Under the pieces are notes generated by a model that did not search any database, was not told where the DNA came from, and was given only the letters and a program-made list of their open reading frames with translations. Shown in pieces: positions 72 to 48,068 of a stretch of DNA of 64,000 nt. The position numbers and the translations under genes are program-made. The stretch is from Microthyrium microscopicum (taxonomy: Eukaryota). The stretch is from assembly GCA_010405405.1 (NCBI GenBank), contig MU004239.1, positions 248,001 to 312,000 on the forward strand, written 5' to 3'. The first letter of the stretch is position 1; the number at the start of each line of letters is the position of its first letter.

Positions 72-986
72 CTATAAGTCCTTCCTCAGACCTCCACCCC
101 TACGCATTTTTGACTCTCGTTTCTTTTCTTCCTCATTGGGTTCATGCCACCATGTTTTTGCGTTTTGCTTTTCAAATCCCAGCTCTTGCCAATTGCGAAA
201 GCTAGCTGAGGTTATTTGATGATAAGGAATTCCAAGGTCTTTCGATAGCTGGTCCTTCATGTAGAAACCCCAATCCCAAAAATCCATATCAAACTCTGGA
301 CCTCCATCGAAGAAGATTTCGAACATCTTCTGCCGCTCCTCAAACTCCGTGTCCATGTAATCCCTGGACTCGTTCACTATTCTATTCTTGTTATAAGCCC
401 GGGGCTTCGTCCACTTGTCAACTTTCTTCCAGTCAACCTGGAATCCGCCTTCGTCATAAGTAGGCGAGCCATTTGGACCCTTTTTGTGACAGATGTATAA
501 GTGATGGCAGTCATAGTAAGGACTCGAAAGGCTCTTCTTGCGAAATGTCGCGTCCCATTGACTTTGGAATGGCAAGATTTCCCCTAATTTGAGGGGCTCT
601 GGGATGTCAAATCGGGCCTTGTATGAGTCTGTGAGACCCATATTCTCCAGATCGTGCTCATCGTAGCGTGGTCGTGCTTCTCGGCCTGGGGTTGCTCGAG
701 GATCCCGCAATTGGCTTCTGTTGTAGTCAAACTCAAGATCCGGTGTCGTTAGGTGAGGCTTTGTCTCCTTTGCAATTTGAACGTCTGGCTTGGTCTTGGA
801 CGTAGCCTTCTTGCGCCCACTAATGGACGTCTTCGGTGCCACCTTGGTCTTCTTGGCAGGTTGGCCTGCCTGGGGCTCATCTTTCGAATGTCGCTTCGAA
901 TTTTTCGAGTTGATTGAGGACGCACTCGATTGCGTCAGCTTTCCCTCCATCGCGTTAGATTTCGTGCCAGCTCGAGTTGTAGGCAT
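72..986 (-). CDS. Hypothetical fungal protein (304 aa), Lys-rich disordered N-terminus, globular-looking C-terminal half
   Basis: Single intronless ATG-started ORF; no family recognised with confidence. Confidence 0.7.
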   Translation of the reverse strand: MPTTRAGTKSNAMEGKLTQSSASSINSKNSKRHSKDEPQAGQPAKKTKVAPKTSISGRKKATSKTKPDVQIAKETKPHLTTPDLEFDYNRSQLRDPRATPGREARPRYDEHDLENMGLTDSYKARFDIPEPLKLGEILPFQSQWDATFRKKSLSSPYYDCHHLYICHKKGPNGSPTYDEGGFQVDWKKVDKWTKPRAYNKNRIVNESRDYMDTEFEERQKMFEIFFDGGPEFDMDFWDWGFYMKDQLSKDLGIPYHQITSASFRNWQELGFEKQNAKTWWHEPNEEEKKRESKMRRGGGLRKDL

Positions 987-1586
987 ATTGAAGCTCTATC
1001 TTTGTAAATCAGGCAATGTTGAGAGAAGTATCAAGTGGGCAGTAAGACGGACGCTAGCAAGTCTCGTCCTATATACTTTGAGCTGGTTGAGGAAGGGAAG
1101 CCATTGACATCAGAGGTGCGACGCGGTTAGAGATCGGCTCTAAGGCTGTAAACATGGTTGCGGCAGAATATTGATCTGATTGGTTCATGTGTTTGTCGAT
1201 GGTTTGGAGATAGAGCTTGTCTTATTCTCCGCCATTGGGTACCGTATGTTATGCTTTATCTAGATATCGTGATCGCACGCCAATCACGTTATTTATGCTG
1301 ATACATTTTTTTCCATCTCCACGATATCTTTAGGTGGAGGGCACGCAACAGATCAAGTCAGCCGGTGATATCGTGGGGAAATACCAGGGATGATGTCACG
1401 ACTGCCTCTCATTGGCCCTATCATGATCTGATGATCCCCAATCTTTCCCATGTCCTTGCCGCTCATCCCTCTTCTTCTGTCTCTTCTTTCTCTGCAGAAC
1501 TCCCTTTACACCTTCGTTCCAACCTCAAGAATAAAACTTGGTGTCTGCTTATGTTGTAACTGCTCCCGAACCCGGAACTCGACTCC

Positions 1587-3326
1587 ATGTCCTCTCCTCG
1601 ACCTTCGTCCAGCGGCGGCCGACCACTCACTCCAAAACACCATGACTGGGTCACTGTGGGGCTATTAATATCTTTAGCTCCCCTGTCCATTACTCTAGGC
1701 CTGTTGGTTGCTTTGTCTGATGCTGTGTCAAGGGTTGTTGGACACAGGGGAAAGCTACTTCCTCGACTAAATGCACAATCGAGCAATCGCCGCCTCAATG
1801 GACGTCCCCAACCCCCGAGCCAGTCAGTGGAGACCACTGCTATCCTTGAACAGCCTAGGGGGCCAAAATATAATGTTTTGATAACTGGATCTACACCTTT
1901 GGCATTGGCAATGGCTCGAGAGTTTACTAAAAATGGTCACCGAGTTACCGTAAGCGATCACGAAACTGTTCGGCGAGTAAATCGAGCCCGATATTCGAGA
2001 GGCGTGTCGAGTTTCTTGCCGATGAAAAAGGTCGATACTTATGCTTGGCCATTGTTTGGTAGATCTACTCAGACTCTCAGTTTTCCCGAACAAATGCTTC
2101 TTGTTGTGAAGGCAAAACAACCGAATATTTGGCTACCATGTGATGATTCAATTACCGAGGAAGAAATGATGCAGGCAGTTGGGGTTATCAAATCGCGATA
2201 TCCAGAGATTTCGGTCTACTCACCTGGACCGGAAGCTCTCAATCTATCGTGGGACTCTACAGAATTTACTCAATATGTTGAATCTCTGGATCTCACTATC
2301 CGAACACCTAGAAGCTCGATTGTGATGAGCAGAGGCGAAGTTCATCGCATGATTGGATCGCCTGGGAGGACCAAATCAGTACATCTCACTGGACCAGTAT
2401 CAAACAACGGTACCCCGGAGCCTTTTGTGAAAGGCCATCGATGGCGAGACTCTGGATATTCCGAAGGCAGCTCCACTGATGGGAAAGATAGCTTGGAAAG
2501 CTCACAGTTGGAAAAGTCGTTTCACCTACCGCTTGAGAATTTAAGCAAGACATATGACCTCCTGAGCAGCCTTTCCATCAATTCTGTATCTCCTTGGAAA
2601 GCATCCAGTGTTGTAATCGGTCGACCTTGTATTGTTCATGCACTTATCGTTGAAAATTCCATGCGAGCATTTACCGCATATCTTGGAAGCAACAAGATTA
2701 CATATCCAGCAACCGAAGACAGCGAATCAGATTCGTTTGCAGACACCATTAATCCTATGGATCAGGATTCCCCTCTAGTTTCTACGCTTCAGCAATTCTC
2801 CAAAGGGTTCATTTCCAAACTCCCAGGTTACGTCTCCGGTACCATAAGTCTGCGGTTCATACTGGTAGAAACCTCTACATCCTTTGGTCTAGAAGTCAGA
2901 CCATGCATCATTCAATGCCAATTTGGTCTTCCTAAGGCTCTCCTAGGAATTCCAGACGCAGCGCCAACTTGGGCGCTGGGTATGGCCAAGCCTTGTGTTC
3001 GAATGAAGCAAAGACAAGCATCAATTCCAAAACAAGAAATCACATCTGGAATCAATACTGGAGTTTACTCTCTTCCAGGAGCATTTTTCTTCCTCTTCCT
3101 GCGATCGATATTTGGTTTTGTCACGTTCCAGCTCTGCACATCCGATGTGCTTTGCCAATGGCGAGTCTTTGTGGATAAGGTAATGTATTGGAGAGAAGAA
3201 CTGTGGGATTCTGAAGATCCAGGTCCTTTCTTTTGGTTCTGGATTGTAGAACAACCAATCGTTGCATTTTTAGAGCTGCTTTCTCGCATATTAAGGACAT
3301 TTAGAATTATGGCGCCGCTGGAATGA
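1587..3326 (+). CDS. Divergent ATP-grasp-like protein (MysC/FsqD-like N-terminal module) with hydrophobic N- and C-terminal segments
   Basis: 579-aa ORF. VLITG..LALAMAREFTKNGHRV..D...ARYSRGVSSF and 'IWLPC' resemble the pre-ATP-grasp region of mycosporine/FsqD-type ligases; C-terminal W..EDPGPFFW. Family call is from memory of motifs. Confidence 0.55.
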   Translation: MSSPRPSSSGGRPLTPKHHDWVTVGLLISLAPLSITLGLLVALSDAVSRVVGHRGKLLPRLNAQSSNRRLNGRPQPPSQSVETTAILEQPRGPKYNVLITGSTPLALAMAREFTKNGHRVTVSDHETVRRVNRARYSRGVSSFLPMKKVDTYAWPLFGRSTQTLSFPEQMLLVVKAKQPNIWLPCDDSITEEEMMQAVGVIKSRYPEISVYSPGPEALNLSWDSTEFTQYVESLDLTIRTPRSSIVMSRGEVHRMIGSPGRTKSVHLTGPVSNNGTPEPFVKGHRWRDSGYSEGSSTDGKDSLESSQLEKSFHLPLENLSKTYDLLSSLSINSVSPWKASSVVIGRPCIVHALIVENSMRAFTAYLGSNKITYPATEDSESDSFADTINPMDQDSPLVSTLQQFSKGFISKLPGYVSGTISLRFILVETSTSFGLEVRPCIIQCQFGLPKALLGIPDAAPTWALGMAKPCVRMKQRQASIPKQEITSGINTGVYSLPGAFFFLFLRSIFGFVTFQLCTSDVLCQWRVFVDKVMYWREELWDSEDPGPFFWFWIVEQPIVAFLELLSRILRTFRIMAPLE

Positions 3327-18623: not shown

Positions 18624-20593
18624 ATGCGTGAGTAATCCATAAGGGAGTCCAAGCAATGCTCATTCTTGTTCAGATTCTGTACGTTCCCGTGCCAGAAAGA
18701 AAACCGGCGAAGAGAAGTTGCAACTACAATTAGAAAGATGGCGCCTGAGAGCAGAAAGGCTTGCGCAAAGAGCGGAGAGCCATCAACATCGGCGACGTAA
18801 ACAACAGGAACAAGATGAACAAACGCACCCTGATGGTGAAACACCACTTCCAAAAGTTGAAAGCAATGAGGCATCCAAGACACATGAACCTAAAGGAACT
18901 CTAAATGGAGGAGCAAATCTTCGAGCGCAACTGAAGATGCTTTTCGCAGCAAACATATTTCGACTGCTTATCAATCTCATGTTCGCTTTGGTTCCTGCAG
19001 GTTTTGCGCTCTATTATACTCATGCCGATGATCTTACCGTCTTTTTCGTCAACTTCTTTGCGGTCATTCCTAGTGCTGCTATACAAGGTGTTGCTGCAGA
19101 TGAGTTGGGGCTTAGGCTACGCGCTACGTTCACCGGCAGATGGGGAGATATCATGGCTGGGCTCTTGAATCAGACATTTGGGTAAGTGATATCGATTTAT
19201 GATGAGAGCACCTTCTACGAGGGATGTCAGCCGGTGGGCAAAATAAAAGGCGCGCTTCCGTCAGCCTTGTTGGCTTCCAGATGCTGAGTTCTATCACCAA
19301 GTGCTTTATTTACCATAAAGAGCGTCCAGAATTGAACGTCTTATCGAATACAGTGGGAAAGATAGCACGGCTTGTTAACAGCGTGGGTGGCAGCCATCAG
19401 AGCTGATGGGAGTACGCCTTTACAAGTTACCACACCGTTGAATGTCAGCGGCGAGAGATAATACGCACAAGATGTATGCTAATCTTGGTGAAATAGTAAT
19501 GCAGTACAGCTCATATCTTCCATCATCCTTCTACGAGCTCGAAGAATCAACATCCTTAAAAGCTCGCTCCTGGGTGGAATACTCACAAATCTCCTTCTCA
19601 TGACTGGGCTAAGCTTTTTCACTGGTGGATTACATTGCTTGGAGCAGTATTTCGACGCCACACTTGCTCAGACCATTGGTATGCTTCTTCTGCTCGCCTG
19701 TTTGAGCCTGGTTATACCTACAGCGGCTCATAGCCTCGGGAATACCTCCCCAAAAGGAATAACACAGCAGTCTCGTGGAACTGCAATCATCATCATGATA
19801 TCATATATCCTTTGGCTTCTGTTTCAACTCAAGTATAACAGAGAGCTGTTTGATAACCCAGAGAAACGAGAGAAGAAGAAAAGAAAGTTGACTGATCAAC
19901 AAAGAATGAAACTGGAAGCTCGACAAGAGGTCAAGAGACAGCTTAAGCGTGCATGGGATGCTAAAATCAACCGCGCCAACCCTCCGTCTACGATCAGTAT
20001 CACTCCTGTTGACTCGGATGTCATTGCAAGTGACTCGAGCGATGGACCCTCCGACGGTGAACCGGATGCCACACTGTCCTATGCTACTTGCTTCATTACT
20101 CTCATAATTAGCACCGTCCTAATCGCGTACAACACGGAACTCGCCACTCGAACAATCGAGGGCCTATTGACCGATGCTGGACTATCAGAGACCTTCGTTG
20201 GCTTGATCATCATCCCGTTGCTCAATATCGACCCAATGTGTATCAGTGTTGCAAACCTGGACAATGTCGACCTTAGTATTTCATTAACGCTTGAACGTTG
20301 TATGCAGACAGCGCTGATGGTCGTGCCGTTTATTGTACTGCTTGCATGGTGGATGCATATTCCAGAGATGAATATGGAATTTGATACCTTTCCAGTCTTG
20401 GCGTTGTTCGCGTCGATTATAATGGTCACGTATGTCGTCCAGCAAGGCAAGAGTAACTGGTAAGACTTCATCAATACTGACAGGATGTGGGACTAACGAT
20501 ATGTATAGGCTTACCGGCGCTTTGCTGGTCAAAGTTTATATTTTGATTGGTCTTTCATCTTATTATGTTGGAACGGCAGAATCGATTCAATAG
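18624..20593 (+). CDS. Ca2+/H+ exchanger (CAX/VCX1-like), divergent; introns ~18628-18673, 19182-19496, ~20460-20508
   Basis: GLLNQTFG|NAVQLI, SSLLGGILTNLLLMTGLSFFTGG, SRGTAII..SYILWLLFQLK, SETFVGLIIIP, MQTALMVVPFIVLLAW, GKSNWLTGALL. The 5' end is tentative. Confidence 0.85.
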
Positions 20594-20821: not shown

Positions 20822-23167
20822 TCAAAGAGCTCTTGCCCCGATATCTTTCCGAAACTGCATGCCTTCGAAATTTATGCTTTTGACTCCTACATAAGCCTTT
20901 GCGATGGCTTTTTCTAGAGTTTCCGCCGTAGCTGTTGATGCAATCACTCTTCCACCTGACGTCTTCAGCTCCCCATCATTCAATACGGTCCCAGCATGGA
21001 ACAATACGACATCTATAACTAGTTAGATGGCATATACACTAGATGCAGTTCTGTACAACTTACCGCTTGGTACTGCTTCTATACTCATATGAGTGCCCTT
21101 CTTGTATGAATCAGGATATCCTCCAGCTGCCACTACCACCGTAGCAGCACACTTCTTCGACACTTTGACATCGACTTGGTGAAGTCTACCTTCCGCAGAT
21201 GCCATCAAGATCTCTGCCAAATCCGAGTCAAGTAGTGCCATCAGACTTTGCGTCTCTGGGTCACCAAAACGGACGTTATACTCCAGCAATCGAGGCCCGT
21301 CCTTGGTGATCATATAACCAGTGAACAGACAGCCTATGAAAGGATATCCGTCCTTTTTCATGCCTTCAATTGTCGGCCGAAGAACAGTATCATCAATCTG
21401 CTCCATAATTTTCTGGGTGACGATTTTTGTTGGCGCAGGCGCATAAGTCCCCATTCCTCCAGTGTTCGGACCCTTATCACCCTCAAAGATTCGTTTGTGG
21501 TCCTGAGCAGGCGGCAGGCTCTTAAAAGAGTTGCCATCACAGAAACTCAGTATGCTAATTTCGTCGCCTTCAAGGAATTCCTCAATCACGACTTCGTTTC
21601 CAGCATCTCCAAAGGCTTTGTCTAGCATGACTTCCTTTATGGCTTTGTGTGCTTCTTCTTTGTTTGCTGGGATAATCACACCTTTGCCAGCTGCCAGGCC
21701 ACTAGCCTTGACGACGACATTGTGATCTATCGAGTCAAGATATTTTCGAGCCGCTTCGTAGTCATCAAAATTTTCATATCGGGCGGTTGGAATGTTGTAC
21801 TTTTTCATAAAGTCTTTGGAGAATGTCTTGCTTCCTTCCATGTGTGCTGCTTTGGCGCTTGGCCCGAAGCTTTTGACTTTTGGCGCATGTTTTGCGAAAA
21901 AGTCTACAATCCCGTCTACTAGAGGTTGCTCTGGCCCGGGAATCAAAAGATCAATGTTGTTGGATTTGGCGAACGTGGCAAGATCTTCAAAGTTTGATGC
22001 CGAGACTGTGCTTAGGTTCGTCGTCTTGGCCAGTGAAGATGTTCCCCCATTACCAGGGCAGACAAACAGCTGGGAAACTGTCGGGGATTGAGACAATTTC
22101 CAGGCCAACGCATGCTCACGGCCGCCGTTGCCAACAAGGAGCACTCGAAGACCACCCCATTTTTGGCCAGTAAGGCGTTCATATGCTTCCACGTAACCTT
22201 GTCGAGTTCGATCAACAACGTCTGCAGGCATGCTCACACCGTCTTTGCCTTTCAGTCCATTGTCAATAAGCCAGTCTCGTAGGTATTGCTTGTCCAAACT
22301 TGACTGCGACTTTCCCACCTGATATTTCTCCGTATCCCAGAATCTGCTGCTATCCGGCGTCAAAACCTCATCAATGAGGACGACAGAAGGCGGCGAAGTA
22401 GCCTCGTCCAGTCCAAACTCAAACTTTGTATCAGCAATGATGATGCCACGCTCCGCTGCATAATCCCGCGCAGTCTTATACAACTTCAAAGACAGTGCTG
22501 CGATTGCGTCTGCATAGTCTTTGCCTACGATTCCAGCTGCTTGCTCGGGAGAGATATTCTCGTCTTTCTCACCCACTTCTGCTTTTGTGCTAGGAGTCCA
22601 GATTGGTTGTTCGAGTTTTTCGCTCTCTTGCAGGCCTTCTGGCATTTTCATCCCATGGACAGTCCCGGTCTTCTTGTACTCGCTCCAGGCGCTACCGGTT
22701 ATGTAGCCACGCACTATAGACTCGATTGGAAATACTTTGAGCTTCCTCACTTGCATAGATCGATCCTGCGCCGCTGCTGCATCTTCAGATGCTGCTAATT
22801 TGGCGGGTAGATCTAGAGTCAGCAGGTGCGTTTTGAGATCTGGAATGGCTTTGCTGAGAACCGAGAACCAGTGGGCAGTAAGTCGAGTCAACAAAGCCCC
22901 TTTATCTGGAATCCCATTGGACAGAACCTGGACACCTATCAGAAGTGTCAAATATTGAAATCCAAATGACATACAACATCGAAGGCGCTCACCCTGTCTG
23001 TGGCCACAAACAGGATAGTCGAATCATCAACTTCATAGAGCTCTCTAACTTCAAAAAGGTCAGTATATATACGTTCGAGACGCTATAGCTTGCTCACCCT
23101 TGCCGGTTGAAAGATGCTTGAAGTGTTTCGAAAGGTCAGTGCTCACGACGACTTGATTTGGTGCCAT
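20822..23167 (-). CDS. Fused SAICAR synthetase (Ade1/PurC) + GAR synthetase (Ade5/PurD); introns 23049-23097, 22928-22974, 21013-21063
   Basis: PurC motifs GKVRELY, DRVSAFD, ESIVRGYITGS, TPSTKA, IADTKFEFG, DEVLTPDSSRFW, DKQYLRDWL continue in the same ORF into PurD motifs GNGGREHA, GPEQPL, MEGSK, KASGLAAGKGV, QDHKR..GPNTGGMG, EYNVRFGDPETQ, FHAGT, TSGGRV, FRKDIG. Confidence 0.93.
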
Positions 23168-23817
23168 GATTTATGAAAGTGGTCTTGGTCGAGTTTAGTA
23201 TTATGCACAAATGAGATGCAACAAGTCCGAATTTTGTACTTGCCGAAATCTGATGTTGAAAAACACTAGCTCAGAATTTTTCACAGCATCCATGGACACC
23301 TGCAGTTACATCAAAAATATACCTCGAGCTTGGTAGATGCACGTGATAGCCCTAGTTCTCAGCCTTGTACTATCAGGCTGAGTTGCAACCACATCCTTAT
23401 CACGACTGTCATCAACGAAACCTAGATTTGCTGATTGATTATACAAAGTCCTTCAGATCAGCGGTATGAGTCGACAAAGAGAATCCTCTAACAATGCCAT
23501 TGATGCCATCAAAGACTCTCACTTCCCTTTATACTTGGGCAGTATATGCAAAACAATGGGATTATATATCAACTTCGACTTTCATATCAACCGCTACAAC
23601 ACCATTGATTTTGAAGGATGGCTTGGTTCAACGCTCCTATACTGGCATCATGGCTCCGCTAGAACACATTTATAGCCTTTGGGGTAGTGTGATAGAATAT
23701 TCTACCATGTCAACCAACAGAAGTCTCTCGAAAGCCTGAGTTCAGCATAAATAACTCTAAGCTCTCTACAAGATTTCAGACCCTACTATCCCAAAGATAT
23801 CGTGTTCAGGAGAAACC

Positions 23818-25143
23818 ATGAACTCAATCAAGTTCTCCTCTGATGAGCTCGCTGAGTGGGCAGTGCTCCGAGCAAACATGCAACGAGCAGCTCGCCGCCA
23901 GCGAGTCCAGGTCATTCGACCTGCAACCCCCCTCATCCTCTCCTCTGAGGATGTGGTTGATACCCCATACACCCCACTCCCAAACTACACGGAGTGGGAT
24001 GCACAAAACCGGGGCCCGGTAAGACCACAAACTCCATCCCCAACCCCACCACCTCGCCATGGCTTGGTCCGAAGGCTAACGAACATCTTCAGACGCCGAA
24101 GAGCCACTACACCAGACGAAGAGCAGGGTTCACATCTCGATGCGAACCAGGCTTTGGTCTGGGCACGCCATGCAACTCGACCAGTTACCGCTCCAGAGCA
24201 AGCGCGGGAATCTTCATCGGATTCCAGTGACAGCGGTTCCACCTCGAGCCCTTCGGGTTCCGAATACTCGGACGACAGCTCTGTGGTGTCCGATTCTGTC
24301 TTCTCTGGCTTTGATGGGACATGGGCCGATCCAGATGATAGCCCAATGACCCCTGAGCTTCCTCGAGGTTGCACAAACAATAAACCCTTCCTCACAGAGG
24401 CCGAGTTTGCAGAGTACTTCACTGAAGACTTTGTGATCGAGCTCTGTGACCTGTACTTCCCCACAGATGTCACTGAGGATGTTGTCTCTGAAGCCGATGC
24501 TGATGAGGACCGTGACTACGACCAATATGATGGTCTAGTCCGCCTCTTCACCGTCAGCGCCCTTCCACGCATAGTCACTGCGCTCCCTATGGTCCTGCCC
24601 TTCGTATGGCGCACACCGGTCATCCCTAGTTGTCCAGTCAGTGCTGGCACCGAGTGGTTGACAATGCCAAAGATCGGGGACTATCTCTCCGCCGCCAACG
24701 ACGACCGAGACATGCGGACATTCTTCAACTCAGCCAGCAGTGCCAGCTTCTCTGACGTCTCCATGTCACCCATGTCCCCAGAGATCTCACGGTCTCAACC
24801 TCCTCCACAAAAGTCCCCTCCCCAAACCACCCTCCCAAGACGGTGGTCTGCACCAGCCGCTCTGCAAACAACACCAACATCCCCCCGTCCGCGCCTCATA
24901 TCTTTCGCACCCCTCCCCCCAGCCCCAGACCACAACCCGCTGGCCCGCCGTCTTCCATCGGCCTACAGCGCGCAGCAGCAACGGCGGGCAAAGCGGGCGA
25001 TCCGGACAGCAGCAGCTGGAGACGCAATCCGCGCAGACTGGGATCGCCAATTGGCGCAGAATCGTGCTCGGAAAGTAGAGCGGATGCGACGAAGAGAGTG
25101 GCCGCTATGGAAAAGGGTGGTGTGCTGTACTGCTTTAAGGTAA
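23818..25143 (+). CDS. Hypothetical low-complexity Pro/Ser/Arg-rich protein (441 aa)
   Basis: Long intronless ATG-started ORF with a T-rich 3' flank; no recognisable domain. Confidence 0.65.
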   Translation: MNSIKFSSDELAEWAVLRANMQRAARRQRVQVIRPATPLILSSEDVVDTPYTPLPNYTEWDAQNRGPVRPQTPSPTPPPRHGLVRRLTNIFRRRRATTPDEEQGSHLDANQALVWARHATRPVTAPEQARESSSDSSDSGSTSSPSGSEYSDDSSVVSDSVFSGFDGTWADPDDSPMTPELPRGCTNNKPFLTEAEFAEYFTEDFVIELCDLYFPTDVTEDVVSEADADEDRDYDQYDGLVRLFTVSALPRIVTALPMVLPFVWRTPVIPSCPVSAGTEWLTMPKIGDYLSAANDDRDMRTFFNSASSASFSDVSMSPMSPEISRSQPPPQKSPPQTTLPRRWSAPAALQTTPTSPRPRLISFAPLPPAPDHNPLARRLPSAYSAQQQRRAKRAIRTAAAGDAIRADWDRQLAQNRARKVERMRRREWPLWKRVVCCTALR

Positions 25144-25488
25144 ATAGTACCTTTGACGCTCGCTTTGCTTTTCCTTTTGTAAGTAAAATAGAATTTCTTT
25201 TTCTGAGAATATTTGTGCCTTTGATTTTTTTTCATGTGATGGGTTTCTAGTGATATTGGGTAGGACGTACCTTGGTAACGATTCCTTGAGAGGTCGATAT
25301 AGGATAGGATGTCGTGAGATATGCATCTGTTGGAAGGCGGGTACGCTTTACCCAGCTCGAGAAGTTAGGAGTAGAATAACTCTAGCAAGTACGAAACGTT
25401 GTCCAATAGGAAAATTCTCATTGCTGATTTGGATATCAATCATCCAGGGGTATTCTACATGTATACAAAAACACTCAAGTCACAGCCT

Positions 25489-28356
25489 CTACAAGGCAGA
25501 CAGTTTCTTCAAAACACTCAACAATCCTAGAAAAGGTTAGCAAATCTTTACTCTTGTAATGATCTCGTAATATCCTGAACTTACCACTCGTACCCTGCGT
25601 CAACGTCGCTGCCGCCTCCGTATTTCGCTTTCCAAGACTGACCGTCGTAACATCGCGCACAACACCACTAACACCAAGCTTGTTCGCCCACTTGAATGCA
25701 CTCTCATCCTCACGATCATCGCCTGCGACGAAAAGGAAGTCAATATCGCCGTCCGCTTTCGCTTTGTCCTCGCCATCCACCTCCTTGCGTAGACCGTCAA
25801 AGACCCAAGCCGCGGCTGATGCCTTTGTCCAATCCAGTGGCTCAATAAGCACACCGTTCTTGATCGGCACAGCATGGATGCGATGGCTGGAGCACGCAGC
25901 ATCAATATGGTTCGCACAGTCGCCCGCCTGGCGCTGCGCGGATTCCATGTCTTCGGGCTTGACGTCGTCGTAGCGAAAGATGAGACTGCAGTTCTTTTCT
26001 TCGACGCGCGAGCCTGCGATACGTTCGTGGTAGTATTGGAGGATTTGTTTGACGTTTTCTTTCCATTCTAGCATGGCGGCCTTTTGTGGGAACATTGTCC
26101 ATTGGTCTTTTGCAAAGGGTCGTACGAAGCAGCCGTTCTCGGCGATGAGGCCGACGTTGGGGAGATAGTTGAATGCACGAGATAGTTCTTCTGGCGTGCG
26201 GCCAGACATCACGTAGACGAGATTACCCGGGATGCTGGAGAGTTTAGTTAAAGTTTCGATTACGCGGTATGGATTGTTCAAATGGACATGCTGAGGGTTG
26301 GAGATGTTGGCCAATGTGCCATCGTAGTCCAGCAAGAAGAGACGGTTGCGGGCTTCGCGGTATTTGTTCGTCAACCCAGCAATGTTTAGTCTTGGAATAG
26401 CTGACATCTCGCGTTGTTGGTGTTCGGCGTGGAACTTATTGAGATCGTCAATGAGCTCTTTGACCCATACTCCGCCAGTCTGGTTGAGAACGATGCCACG
26501 TAGTTGGTTATAACGACGTTCCTTTTCTTCCACTGGCATCTCGAGGGCAACCTTGATTGCTTGTGCACAGGTTTTGTAATCCCAGGGATTGACAGCTAGA
26601 TCCCCGCCTTGGAAGACTGAGCTTGAACCTGTAAACTCGGACAAGATGACAGGTCCATGTTTCTTGTCCGACATGGAGCCGTCTTGACAGAGAATGTATT
26701 CGTGGCAGGTCAGGTTCATGCCCTCGCGTAGACTTGTGATCATGAGCACATCAGCTACGGAGAGCAGGGCAAGGTACTGCGAGAATGGAATGTCTTGTCT
26801 TAGAAAGACTAGAGGTTGATGAGCAAGTGTGCTGTGCTGGGAGTCAATTCGATTAACAATTTCAGAAACGACATCGGTGAGCTGTGGATTATCGGGAGTC
26901 GAGGTGGCCACCTGGATCAACACAACATCCTCCTTGTATTCTGGATATTTGTTGAGGAACAATTCGAAAGCCAGCAGCTTTTGTCGAACGCCTCTAACGT
27001 GGTCGAGCTTGTCTCGTGCGGCAATGATTTTCTTGCCCTTGTATCGTTCTTTCATGGTGGCAATCCATTCGGCAACCTCTTCCATTTGACGAGCGTCGGA
27101 AAAGCCTTTGGGATCCACTCCGATTGGGGTAGAGACGACGTTGATGAATCGATCTTCTAGCTGAATGCCGTTTTCCATGGCTTCCACTACAAGCAAGCGG
27201 CTGCATGTAGTCAGGAAATGTTCTTCGTACTCGGGGCATTGGAATGCGATGAGGTTAGCACCGAGCATTCCTTCGAGTAGTTCCTTTCGAACCGAGAGAC
27301 AGCGGAACACTTCGGAGGATGGGAAAGCAGTGTGCAGAAAGAATCCAATTTTAGCATCCGGAAGCTTTTGGCGAACCATGTTTGGAACAAGCAGCAGGTG
27401 ATAGTCGTGAATCCAGATCATGTCCCCGCGTTTATAGCTAGCGACGATCTTGTCGGCAAATGCTTGATTCACTTTAACGTAGAAACCATATGAATGATCC
27501 TCATACGCTTTGCTCTTTGGATGATCTGGAATTTGATAATGGAAGACAGGCCAGAGGATGGTCTTGCAAAAGTGAGTGTAGTGTCCATCGAAATCGCTAT
27601 CGCTGACAAAAACTACCAGAGATTGTAGTTCTTCAGAGTCAAACTTTTCGCAAATGTCATTCTTGACATTTTCTTCCAGAGAATCGGTAGGGAATCCAAG
27701 AGTGCCCATCCAAATAATGTCATCACCAACCGTGTTATCTCGCTCGGCAGCTTTGATAGCATTGGCTAGGCCACCATTGCCTTGCTCGGCAGGTTCAACA
27801 GTCCATTCGGAGCCCCAGTACTTTCCTCTTTGACCGCTTGTAGATCGAGAAGCATTTGATTTTCTGGCACTTGGAGTTGGACTTCGCTTCTTTCGAGGAG
27901 CTCCAATTCCCACACCATTGTTCAGGCCAAGAAGATCCTGGCCTGGCTGAGCAGCGTAGTGGCCAAGTAGAGTTCGTGGTGGCAGCTCTTGAGCGCGACT
28001 AGGAGGGTGATTGAAGAGTAATCCGGCACCCCAATCAGCGACATGAGCATCACTTCGCATCAATGTTCGAGGGTCGTGTGGCTTGACGAAGTGAGTAGCC
28101 GCCTTGGGCTGATTTTGGGCGAAGAAAGCAGCTTCATCGGCGGTGATGCCTGGAGTCTTTGCAGGAATTGGTTGGGTCTTTTCTAAGAGGGAGAGGCGTC
28201 GTTCGGGGTCACCAAAGTAGTCTTCTGCTCGACTTTGCTGACTAGGAGACTCTGGGACCTGGAAGTCTATACATGTGTTAGCTTTGCAAGGCAGAGTATT
28301 TGGAGCTTCGTACCCAGGGTATAGGGTAGGAACAGGCTAACAACGTGAACCACCAT
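25489..28356 (-). CDS. TPS3: Trehalose-6-phosphate synthase complex regulatory-type subunit (Tps3/Tsl1/TslA-like); short 5' intron and 3' intron 25527-25584
   Basis: MVVHVVSLFLPYT start, GT20 domain (ILWPVFHYQIPDHPKSKAYEDH, WIHDYHL, GFFLHTAFPSSE, REGMNL, LSEFTG) followed by a HAD phosphatase domain. Confidence 0.9.
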
Positions 28357-45385: not shown

Positions 45386-48068
45386 TTTCTTACTATATAT
45401 TTAGCTTAGCTCCGCTAAGCCCTATAAGTTATAGGAATATTACCAAAATCCTAACTTTATCTCTTACCTTTAGCAAAATTCTACTACTACTCTACTAAAA
45501 TCTACTAATACTTTAATCTACTACTACTATATTAAATAGCTATTAAATTTCCTCCTAAGGATAGCAAATTTTACTTCTTTAAAAGTGCTCTTAAGCATAT
45601 ATAAAATTATAGTAAATAATATAGTTATGCTATAGTTAAAAAGTGATCTAAAACTAAGGAAGGTAAAGATACTCCCTACGTTTACTACTATAAATATAAT
45701 TACCATAATAACTACTCCTTAACGTCTCTTAGCATACGAAAGCCTAAAACAAAGCAAAAAGACTATTCCTTTAGGCTCATTATATAGTAGTAAGAGGACC
45801 TTTAGTTTAATTAGATTTAGAAGATTAAAACTAAACCTAATAGTTATAACTATCTGCTATTAAATAATCCTACTTTATACGCTTAATACTATTAAGATAT
45901 ATTAAAATTAATTAGTAGTAGTATAGCAATTAATAAATATATAGATTAAGGCTAGAAGATAAAGCGCATCTTTATAAAGCTTATAAAGAATAAATCTTTA
46001 ACAATAATTCTATAGGATATCTATAATTATTAAATATAATCTTAAATTAAATATTTAGCTAGTAAAATACCTATAGAGGCGTTAATTTAAGACCTTAAAA
46101 AGGATAAGGAATTAGTATATAAATATTTAGTTACGCTAGATCTTTACCTTAAATCTATCTTCTTTATTATAATTTTGTAGATAAAGCTTTATTATGCTTA
46201 TCTAAATATCTTATTAATAGATATAACCTATAGTACTAATAAGTATAAGATACTACTTCTTTACTTTGCTAGCGTTACTCTAGTAGGTAAATACTTCTCC
46301 CTTAGATTTTACTTTATATCTAGTAAAGCTAAAGAAGATTATATTTAGGCTTTTAAAGCTTTTAAACGTTATACGCGCTATAATAGTATTAAATTGCTAA
46401 ATATCATTCTTACTAATTACTATTAAGCCTTTAAGAACGCCCTAAATAAGGTATTACTAGCGCCTTAACTAATTTGCTTATTTTACTTAAATAAAGCTAT
46501 TAATTATTAGTTTAAATTGGCCTTTAAGACTAAGGAATATATAAAGGATAGTCCTAGTTATCTTAAAGTGGTAGAAGAGAAGGAAGCTACGCGTAATATT
46601 TAGCAAAAGGTTAGTCTTTAGCTCTCTATCTAAGTTAGAATACTAATAAATTACTAGGTAGTCTACTTCTTTACTAAGGATAAGCATAAAGCTACTTAGA
46701 CTAATTTTAATACTAAATATTCTACTTTATATCCTAAACTTATTACTTACCTTACTACTACTTAGATGCTATATAAAGATTAATTTGCTAGCTATTATAT
46801 TATTAATTTTAGGTACTTTAATGCTTAAATAACATTACTATTAGAAAGACTTTATAGTAGCCTTAAAAAGTAGCTTAAAAGTAGCAAAATAGACTTATAT
46901 ATAGTTATTAAATATATTAAGATTGCTATTAATACTTAGTACGCTAAAATAAAAGGTATTTTAGGTCTTAATTTAATTTACATATCTTATTACACTAGCG
47001 CTTTAGTAATACTAGTTCTTAATATAGATTTTAAGAATTTTATCTTAAATATAGCTCGTATTATAATTAGTAAGCAATATAAGAAATACGTTAATAAAGA
47101 TTCCTAGCTAGCATATCTTTATAAATGTACTAAAAGCTTTACTAAAATATATAATATTACTTACTCTTATATAATACAAAATTATCTTGCCTTTAATAAC
47201 GTTTAGTAGCTAGATTCTAGTAATGTTAATACCTATTAGTATTATAATTAATCTAAATCTAGTAACGCGACCTAGATCTCTTTAGGCCTATAATTTGCAC
47301 CTCTGCTAGTTCCTTAAGTTCCTACTATCCTACCTCTAGATATTATATGCGCTATAGGTTGTCTACGCGTAGGATAAGCTTTATCTTTAACTAATAGAAT
47401 ATAAAGCTTCTAGGAGGGAGAATTATAGCCTTTAGCTAGTACTATTAATAGTTAAATCGCTACTAAAGCTATAGATTGTAAGAATATTTTATAAGAAGTT
47501 ACTAAAACTATAGTTCAATGAGTCTATGAAGTAGTTAACCTTACTAACTCTCTACTACCATAAAAACGCTAAAAATAAGCTTTAGCTTGCTTACTAGTAC
47601 CCTTAAATAAGGTGCTTATAGTATATTAGGCTCCTTCTTTGTTTTATATATTATTTATATATAAATAGAAGCAACGTAATAATTTAGTAGAGGAATAGGA
47701 CTTACTATAGGCGTAGCTAGATGTCCTCTAAGCTTAGATTACTACTATGCATAGAGAGTGTAGATGAGGTAGAGGGCGTAGATCTTAAGGAGGAACTATA
47801 ATACTATTAACTTATAGAGGTAAAGGAATAGCTATAATAATATTATAGGGTTATAGAGGTAGAGGATAAGCTAGTTAGTGGCCTCTTGGTTGAATTTACG
47901 CTTTAAACGATATAATTATGGACTAAAATAGCTTTAAGATAGAGGAATTACTATGGGTAGTAAATAGTAATAAAAGTGCTTAGTTATGCTTTAAGATCTA
48001 TTTAAATCGTGCGCTAGTAGTAGGCGCTAGTAACCCTCCTAGTGCTAGTACTTATTACTTCTAGAAAT

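Follow-up and report, generated by a model that had tools for sequence, protein, structure and literature searches.

In animals, the bifunctional purine enzyme PAICS carries SAICAR synthetase (PurC, or Ade1; SAICAR is phosphoribosylaminoimidazole succinocarboxamide) as its N-terminal module; the partner of PurC in it is PurE, and the steps that are joined are consecutive. Here we describe a gene in which PurC has a different partner. The gene belongs to Microthyrium microscopicum, a leaf-dwelling fungus of the Dothideomycetes (Microthyriales), and lies on contig MU004239.1 of GenBank assembly GCA_010405405.1, between positions 248,001 and 312,000 of the forward strand; this stretch of 64,000 nucleotides (nt) is referred to below as the window, and all coordinates are counted from its first letter. 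After splicing, a single reading frame runs from PurC into GAR synthetase (GARS, or PurD; GAR is glycinamide ribonucleotide), which acts at a step that is not consecutive with that of PurC, and no PurE or aminoimidazole ribonucleotide (AIR) carboxylase domain is found among the Pfam matches of the protein. We consider it very likely that this is a genuine single gene for a bifunctional SAICAR synthetase-GAR synthetase, and that the fusion is native and specific to one clade.

The closest described system is bacterial. PMC8449271 describes the GARS and SAICAR synthetase of Francisella as "fused together", and the gene name purCD is in use in the literature. From a search of 1.84 billion representative proteins we considered the best 150 of 37,717 matches and scanned 20 of them with Pfam; SAICAR_synt and GARS are combined in four of the 20 (P0201, P0124, P0125 and P0148). 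Three loci titled Francisella share 90-92% identity with P0201 (769 amino acids (aa); SAICAR_synt 26-272, GARS 328-747), and they are the only ones of 39 loci that cover both halves. Like the fungal fusion, Francisella PurCD is one polypeptide of similar size, with PurC at the N-terminal and GARS at the C-terminal end. Unlike the fungal fusion, it is bacterial, has no introns and has a longer segment between its Pfam domains, and P0201 is 34.6% identical to the fungal protein (public protein P0003). The other three representatives (760-762 aa) contain the same two enzymes in the reverse order, with GARS (1-420) ahead of SAICAR_synt (about 455-726); identity between P0003 and P0124 is 40-42%. 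In the sequences considered here, fusion of PurC with PurD has occurred at least three times: in the fungal clade, in Francisella and, in reverse order, elsewhere. A further join may be represented in the ESM Atlas, where 113 "Multifunctional fusion proteins" that contain both families form one cluster (98% bacterial, Actinomycetota being the commonest phylum).

GARS is clearly a frequent fusion partner. PMC8449271 describes GARS and AIRS as fused in fungi, and fungal Ade5,7, Schizosaccharomyces pombe Ade1 (both GARS-AIRS) and the animal GARS-AIRS-GART enzyme likewise join GARS to a non-consecutive purine step; the architecture of animal PAICS, SAICAR synthetase joined to AIR carboxylase, is named in PMC10912719. 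In Ade5,7-type proteins AIRS lies C-terminal to GARS, whereas in M. microscopicum PurC lies N-terminal to GARS and AIRS is absent. The GARS half is 56% identical to an 802-aa GARS-AIRS representative (P0123), which matches the window only over its own residues 10-433. Additional partners of GARS in the Pfam scan were a formyltransferase, on either side, AIRS and a PfkB kinase; in one 733-aa protein (P0206), a PfkB-family sugar kinase domain (24-289) stands ahead of a complete GARS.

An earlier, sequence-only reading of the locus had assumed that GARS is fused to AIRS in the ascomycete background, an assumption that fails for the Dothideomycetes. Yemelin et al. (PMC5568738) reported that MYCO4 of Zymoseptoria tritici (428 aa) and its relatives in the Mycosphaerellaceae have GARS domains only, that AIRS and GART are separate genes in Z. 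tritici, and that inactivation of MYCO4 results in purine auxotrophy, so that the free GARS is functional and essential. We searched proteins with exon 3 of the fusion gene and considered the best 120 of 7999 scored matches. Most of the GARS-only matches among them are about 430 aa long, and the named ones come from many Dothideomycete orders (for example P0028, P0030, P0037, P0040 and P0043), extending beyond the Mycosphaerellaceae. The MYCO4-type free GARS is an orthologue of the GARS half, has the same ...IGARA(L/F) end and also lacks AIRS; in the fusion, the initiator Met and first residues of a free Dothideomycete GARS are replaced by a whole PurC. Many of the stand-alone GARS proteins, and plain PurC proteins too, carry the misleading name "Bifunctional purine biosynthetic protein ADE1".

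In the open-access literature we found no paper on a fungal PurC-PurD fusion and, among the papers listed that name M. microscopicum, none on purines. The sequence-only reading likewise knew of no described fungal fusion of this kind, but the same architecture is described in Francisella (PMC8449271) and the fused gene model is already public at NCBI and in UniRef. The PurC-PurD architecture is not new to biology, and its occurrence here is a new fungal case that converges on Francisella PurCD.

Structure, splicing and domain content of the fused gene

The fusion gene is on the minus strand, from 23167 to 20822, and consists of four exons and three introns, all three of the GT..AG type (Table 1). 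Its start codon is at 23167-23165, and the summed exons come to 2199 nt, or 732 codons and a stop. The spliced 732-aa translation agrees at every residue with P0003, which is named [quoted passage not shown] at NCBI; the public name covers the GARS half only, which is a warning for annotation. The junction between the two enzymes lies within exon 3, where Trp305 is encoded by 22159-22157 and Leu308, after the linker of two Gly residues, by 22150-22148. The sequence here reads ...YERLTGQKW-GG-LRVLLVGNGGREH..., a single uninterrupted frame from PurC into GARS with neither a stop codon nor a Met.

The RNA evidence comes from a Logan contig of run X1. This contig, 12,122 nt in length, aligns to the window with no differing letters. 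It has three skips and no more; they measure 51, 47 and 49 nt, and their CT..AC ends on the plus strand correspond to GT..AG on the minus strand. Because the skips fall at the predicted introns, the contig is taken to be derived from spliced RNA. X1 is the sole public run found with this stretch; its record carries no RNA label, and the RNA origin rests on these three skips. The contig is unbroken over 21064-22925, including the junction. The sequence-only reading had claimed that the junction contains no stop, Met or intron, and the sequence and the spliced, continuous contig agree with it; the three introns elsewhere in the gene were not part of its description.

Both halves of the protein are complete, and each belongs to the ATP-dependent ligases. 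In Pfam searches, exon 3 (621 aa) matches SAICAR_synt (PF01259; expectation value (E) 2.7e-61), GARS_N (E 6.8e-36) and GARS_A (E 8.9e-85, profile positions 1-194 of 194), and exon 4 (62 aa) matches GARS_C (E 7.4e-21); the three GARS domains are all present, ordered and complete in the PurD half. No AIRS or AIRS_C domain is detected by Pfam in the fusion protein, which ends ...IGARAL directly before the stop. Alignment to solved structures in the Protein Data Bank (PDB) places residues 9-306 of P0003 on residues 5-305 of the 306-residue SAICAR synthase chain 1A48_A (E 5.9e-109), residues 306-732 on the Cryptococcus GARS 7LVO (E 3.2e-140), and residues 308-732 on 3-426 of the 431 residues of the GAR synthetase chain 1GSO_A. 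The GARS half matches solved GARS chains, from Cryptococcus, human and others, from end to end. At E 1e-40 or better there are 15 distinct PDB sequences, 11 of GARS and four of PurC, and none of the 15 covers both halves. The earlier description of one frame leading from a complete PurC into a complete PurD is borne out by these Pfam and PDB matches together with the spliced contig.

An AlphaFold2 (AF2) model of the fusion protein, built on a 59-row alignment, has a mean predicted local distance difference test (pLDDT) score of 90.7 and a predicted template modelling (pTM) score of 0.79. In the model, a six-residue turn connects the C-terminal helix of PurC (283-301) to the first strand of GARS (308-314), with a pLDDT of 88 for the block of residues 301-310. 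The sole weak region, 521-550, is within GARS_A and contains KGPNTGGMG. The model suggests that the two halves would be arranged compactly and not as beads on a string.

Recurrence and ancestry of the fusion

The fusion is not restricted to a single assembly. Among the best 120 matches to exon 3, a PurC tail and GARS occur in one frame in 18 clusters (P0003-P0019 and P0021), and the 17 besides P0003 come from JGI, ENA and Logan assemblies. In the 18 clusters, a 57-residue segment across the junction has 16 different sequences. After KW (RW in one cluster), the linker has either two residues (GG, PS, SA, VQ, QS, HS, EG, KS or RS) or five (QSVGG or QSEGG), and no fused relative has a Met before the GARS start. 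Among the named fungi in our searches, the fusion is confined to one lineage. In metagenome DNA, 557 stretches proved to be relatives. Of the 80 loci that were kept, none has an uninterrupted PurC-GARS frame; five were flagged by tblastn across the junction, and all five are broken by stops. One contig from a sediment metagenome (L002, 973-3162), apparently bacterial as it has no introns and its open reading frames (ORFs) are read under table 11, carries adjacent purC (973..1866) and purD (1885..3162) genes in the same frame, with one stop codon and 18 nt between them. It is one mutation short of a fusion and, read through, is 46% identical to the fungal fusion protein over residues 7-732.

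Compared with the free enzymes of Verruconis gallopava, Tothia fuscella and Trichodelitschia bisporula, the PurC half has 72-74% identity to PurC (about 306 aa) and the GARS half about 70% identity to GARS (about 430 aa). Among themselves, these three show identities of 71-72% for PurC and 69-73% for GARS. Because the identities of the fused halves match those among the free orthologues, neither half shows relaxed constraint or evolves faster than a free enzyme. By sequence comparison, the fungal fusion is native and independent of Francisella PurCD, because its halves are 70-74% identical to free Dothideomycete enzymes and only about 35% identical to the Francisella fusion; common descent of the two fusions is not seen, and the GARS half nests in fungal GARS.

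A quick tree of GARS was built from 63 rows: all 18 fused clusters, together with 42 of the 102 free matches and three outgroups. The 18 fused rows and one free GARS, P0020, form a single group with a Shimodaira-Hasegawa-like approximate likelihood ratio test (SH-aLRT) support of 89, adjoined by a free clade and then by the Tothia/Verruconis clade. On this tree the label "fused" needs two changes, of which the starred branches force at least one, and none of 500 shuffles gave a number as low. This fits a single origin of the fusion. P0020 is a truly free GARS that starts MSQNLRVLL, and could be either a sister lineage or a secondary split. The proposal that the fusion is lineage-specific has stood up, both among the named fungi and in the grouping of the fused rows.

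In the three nearest named relatives, PurC and GARS are found on contigs of different size, namely 572,761 and 422,860 in Verruconis, 317,812 and 793,445 in Tothia, and 2,035,263 and 1,876,117 in Trichodelitschia (PurC first in each case). The two genes are unlinked in these species because they are on different contigs, and therefore a rearrangement was needed to bring them together; read-through or loss of an intergenic spacer is insufficient. The free PurC of the nearest relatives ends 0-4 residues past KW, free GARS begins with Met and 2-5 residues followed by LR(V/I)LL, and the join is almost end to end. In the scenario that we propose, an ancestor of the small clade that includes Microthyrium would have lost the stop codon and last few codons of its PurC gene, which would then have been placed directly ahead of GARS, with loss of the GARS Met and the first two to five codons. 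The GARS to which PurC was fused would already have been free in the Dothideomycetes.

Alternative explanations and the likely function

Several points weigh against reading the locus as a native gene for one bifunctional enzyme. Its RNA support is one assembled contig from one run, presumably from the same organism, and the 12-kb contig also spans neighbouring genes, so that it demonstrates splicing and an uninterrupted sequence but is no proof of one single transcript or of the absence of an internal start. Most of the fused relatives are partial single-exon gene calls. The support for the fused clade is below the star threshold on what is a quick tree, and the position of the free P0020 at its poorly supported base makes a secondary fission, or a slightly later origin of the fusion, possible. 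An AIRS gene of M. microscopicum was not located: AIRS is absent from the 64-kb window, and the AIRS part of P0123, when compared with shorter proteins, gave no Dothideomycete name among the 120 matches listed, which is uninformative. Finally, both enzyme activities are predicted from homology, and only the best 120 matches for each half were listed, so that more diverged free copies are conceivable.

The alternative that survives best, although it is quite improbable, is that one gene gives rise to two proteins. PurC and GARS would then be separated by cleavage at the Gly-Gly linker, or made separately from an internal promoter or start codon, and the fusion would exist at the level of the gene only. 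Transcript starts are invisible to contigs, and there is an in-frame Met (in ...GVSMPADVV...) upstream of the junction. However, a GARS translated from that Met would carry part of the C-terminal helix of PurC, whereas free GARS proteins start with a Met and 2 to 5 residues right before LR(V/I)LL, precisely where all fused relatives lack a Met. In addition, the connection in the AF2 model is short and confidently placed, at the pLDDT given above, with no long disordered linker.

Very improbable, in our view, is that the gene is a redundant or specialised paralogue, with free PurC and GARS located elsewhere in the genome and a fused copy that is inactive in one half or serves a side role. The conceivable diverged copies mentioned above would be in its favour. 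Nevertheless, no second M. microscopicum protein is present among the 120 best PurC matches or the 120 best GARS matches, both lists being filled by orthologues from other Dothideomycetes (59-75% identity). The halves are also as conserved as free orthologues are to one another, both have full-length matches to Pfam families and to solved enzymes, and the fusion has been maintained across a diversified clade. The neighbours of the gene are unrelated housekeeping genes with no sign of a metabolite cluster.

That two separate genes were wrongly joined by assembly or annotation is vanishingly unlikely, and was rejected: although the fusion is found in only one named genome and the RNA comes from a single run, the spliced contig has the identical junction with no differing letters, the same join recurs in the 17 other clusters from independent assemblies with largely distinct junction sequences, and the two domains have no stop, Met or spare sequence between them. 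Horizontal transfer of a ready-made bacterial purCD of the Francisella or Actinomycetota type was likewise rejected and has a negligible chance of being correct, for although P0201 matches the fungal protein in domain order and the ESM Atlas cluster is the nearest by features (score 0.98), the halves are far closer to the free enzymes of neighbouring Dothideomycetes than to P0201 (70-74% versus 34.6%), the GARS half nests inside Dothideomycete GARS with bacterial rows on very long branches, and the gene has three spliceosomal introns.

If the gene is a native fusion that encodes one protein, as we favour, its product is probably bifunctional. SAICAR synthetase activity, the conversion of carboxyaminoimidazole ribonucleotide (CAIR), aspartate and ATP to SAICAR, would be expected from the 72-74% identity to free orthologues. 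GAR synthetase activity, the conversion of phosphoribosylamine (PRA), glycine and ATP to GAR, would be expected of the second half, the free orthologue of which Z. tritici requires for purine prototrophy (PMC5568738). We infer that the product is a single polypeptide in vivo and, likewise, the selective reason for the fusion. The two active sites would act independently, at the GAR and SAICAR steps, and direct channelling between them is not expected because these steps are non-consecutive. A bearing on purinosome scaffolding, as put forward in the sequence-only reading, would be a hypothesis. The main gain would be fixed 1:1 co-expression and co-localisation, as has been argued for GARS-AIRS and the animal trifunctional enzyme. 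According to PMC8449271, the Cryptococcus GARS unit alone has a kcat/Km for PRA about 3-fold below that of the GARS-AIRS protein, and therefore a fused partner can tune GARS.

It is conceivable, though doubtful, that the repeated joins reflect a general physical partnership of PurC and PurD in a purine metabolon, with the two-residue join freezing a pre-existing interface; if so, the protein would be a natural rigid model for the packing of non-consecutive purine enzymes. Irrespective of this, the locus is a clean case of convergent fusion of non-consecutive pathway steps and a natural construct with which to ask whether such fusions alter kinetics or assembly. It shows that the domain combinations of fungal purine enzymes are not fixed: GARS-AIRS was split in the Dothideomycetes, and the freed GARS was recaptured by PurC in one sub-lineage. 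As a rare genomic change, the fusion is a possible marker of the Microthyrium-related clade, that is the Microthyriales and environmental relatives, which are poorly sampled. No new mechanism follows from it, and no long-standing question is resolved.

Neighbouring genes and other features of the window

Coordinates of the fusion gene, its parts and the nearest features are given in Table 1. The neighbours include a convergent gene of the Na/Ca-exchanger family, a trehalose-phosphate synthase/phosphatase, a methyltransferase and a Timeless homologue.

Table 1. Features of the fusion gene and its surroundings, in window coordinates
Feature	Coordinates	Strand	Description	Basis
Exon 1	23098..23167	-	MAPNQ...STGK and first base of the Val24 codon	Sequence; contig joint 23048/23098; match to P0003
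Intron 1	23049..23097	-	49 nt, GT..AG	Absent from X1 contig; CT..AC on plus strand
Exon 2	22975..23048	-	Remaining bases of the Val24 codon, then RELYEVDDSTILFVATDRVSAFDV	Sequence; P0003; X1 contig
Intron 2	22928..22974	-	47 nt, GTATGT..CAG	Contig skip given as 22926-22972, "cut +2", compatible with 22928-22974
Exon 3	21064..22927	-	1864 nt; remaining PurC, GG linker, GARS_N, GARS_A, start of GARS_C	Translation P0001; Pfam; X1 contig (0 differing letters)
Intron 3	21013..21063	-	51 nt, GTAAGT..TAG, phase 1	Absent from X1 contig
Exon 4	20822..21012	-	End of GARS_C, ...IGARAL, TGA 20824-20822	Translation P0002; GARS_C Pfam match
SAICAR synthetase (PurC/Ade1) half	22157..23167	-	Residues 1-305, introns 1 and 2 included	Alignment to PDB 1A48_A; identity to free PurC
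Linker Gly306-Gly307	22151..22156	-	2 to 5 residues here in relatives	Sequence
GAR synthetase (PurD) half	20825..22150	-	Residues 308-732, intron 3 included	Alignments to PDB 7LVO and 1GSO_A; about 70% identity to free GARS
Na_Ca_ex gene	19492-20508	+	Convergent neighbour	Na_Ca_ex E 1.8e-17
460-aa open frame	23761-25143	+	Ser/Pro/Arg-rich, divergent from the fusion gene; candidate gene only	No Pfam match
953-aa open frame	25475-28336	-	Ordinary fungal trehalose-phosphate synthase/phosphatase type	Glyco_transf_20 E 2.2e-157; Trehalose_PPase E 2.3e-44

The X1 contig continues from the 3' end of the fusion gene into the Na_Ca_ex gene, where the loose end at 20508 apparently resumes at about 20430-20460. 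This suggests that the Na_Ca_ex gene has an intron near 20508 and that the 3' ends of the two genes overlap or abut. The region upstream of the fusion gene (23168-23760) contains no copy of TGACTC, the Bas1/Gcn4-type site, and provides no regulatory clue; in the window as a whole, the motif occurs 23 times compared with 38.5 expected. Further along the window, at 45500-48000, is an AT-rich block in which GC content in 500-nt windows is 24-31%, compared with about 41-49% in its flanks and about 45-53% over most of the window. The block contains no ORF of 250 aa or more, and may be a degraded repeat like those produced by repeat-induced point mutation (RIP).

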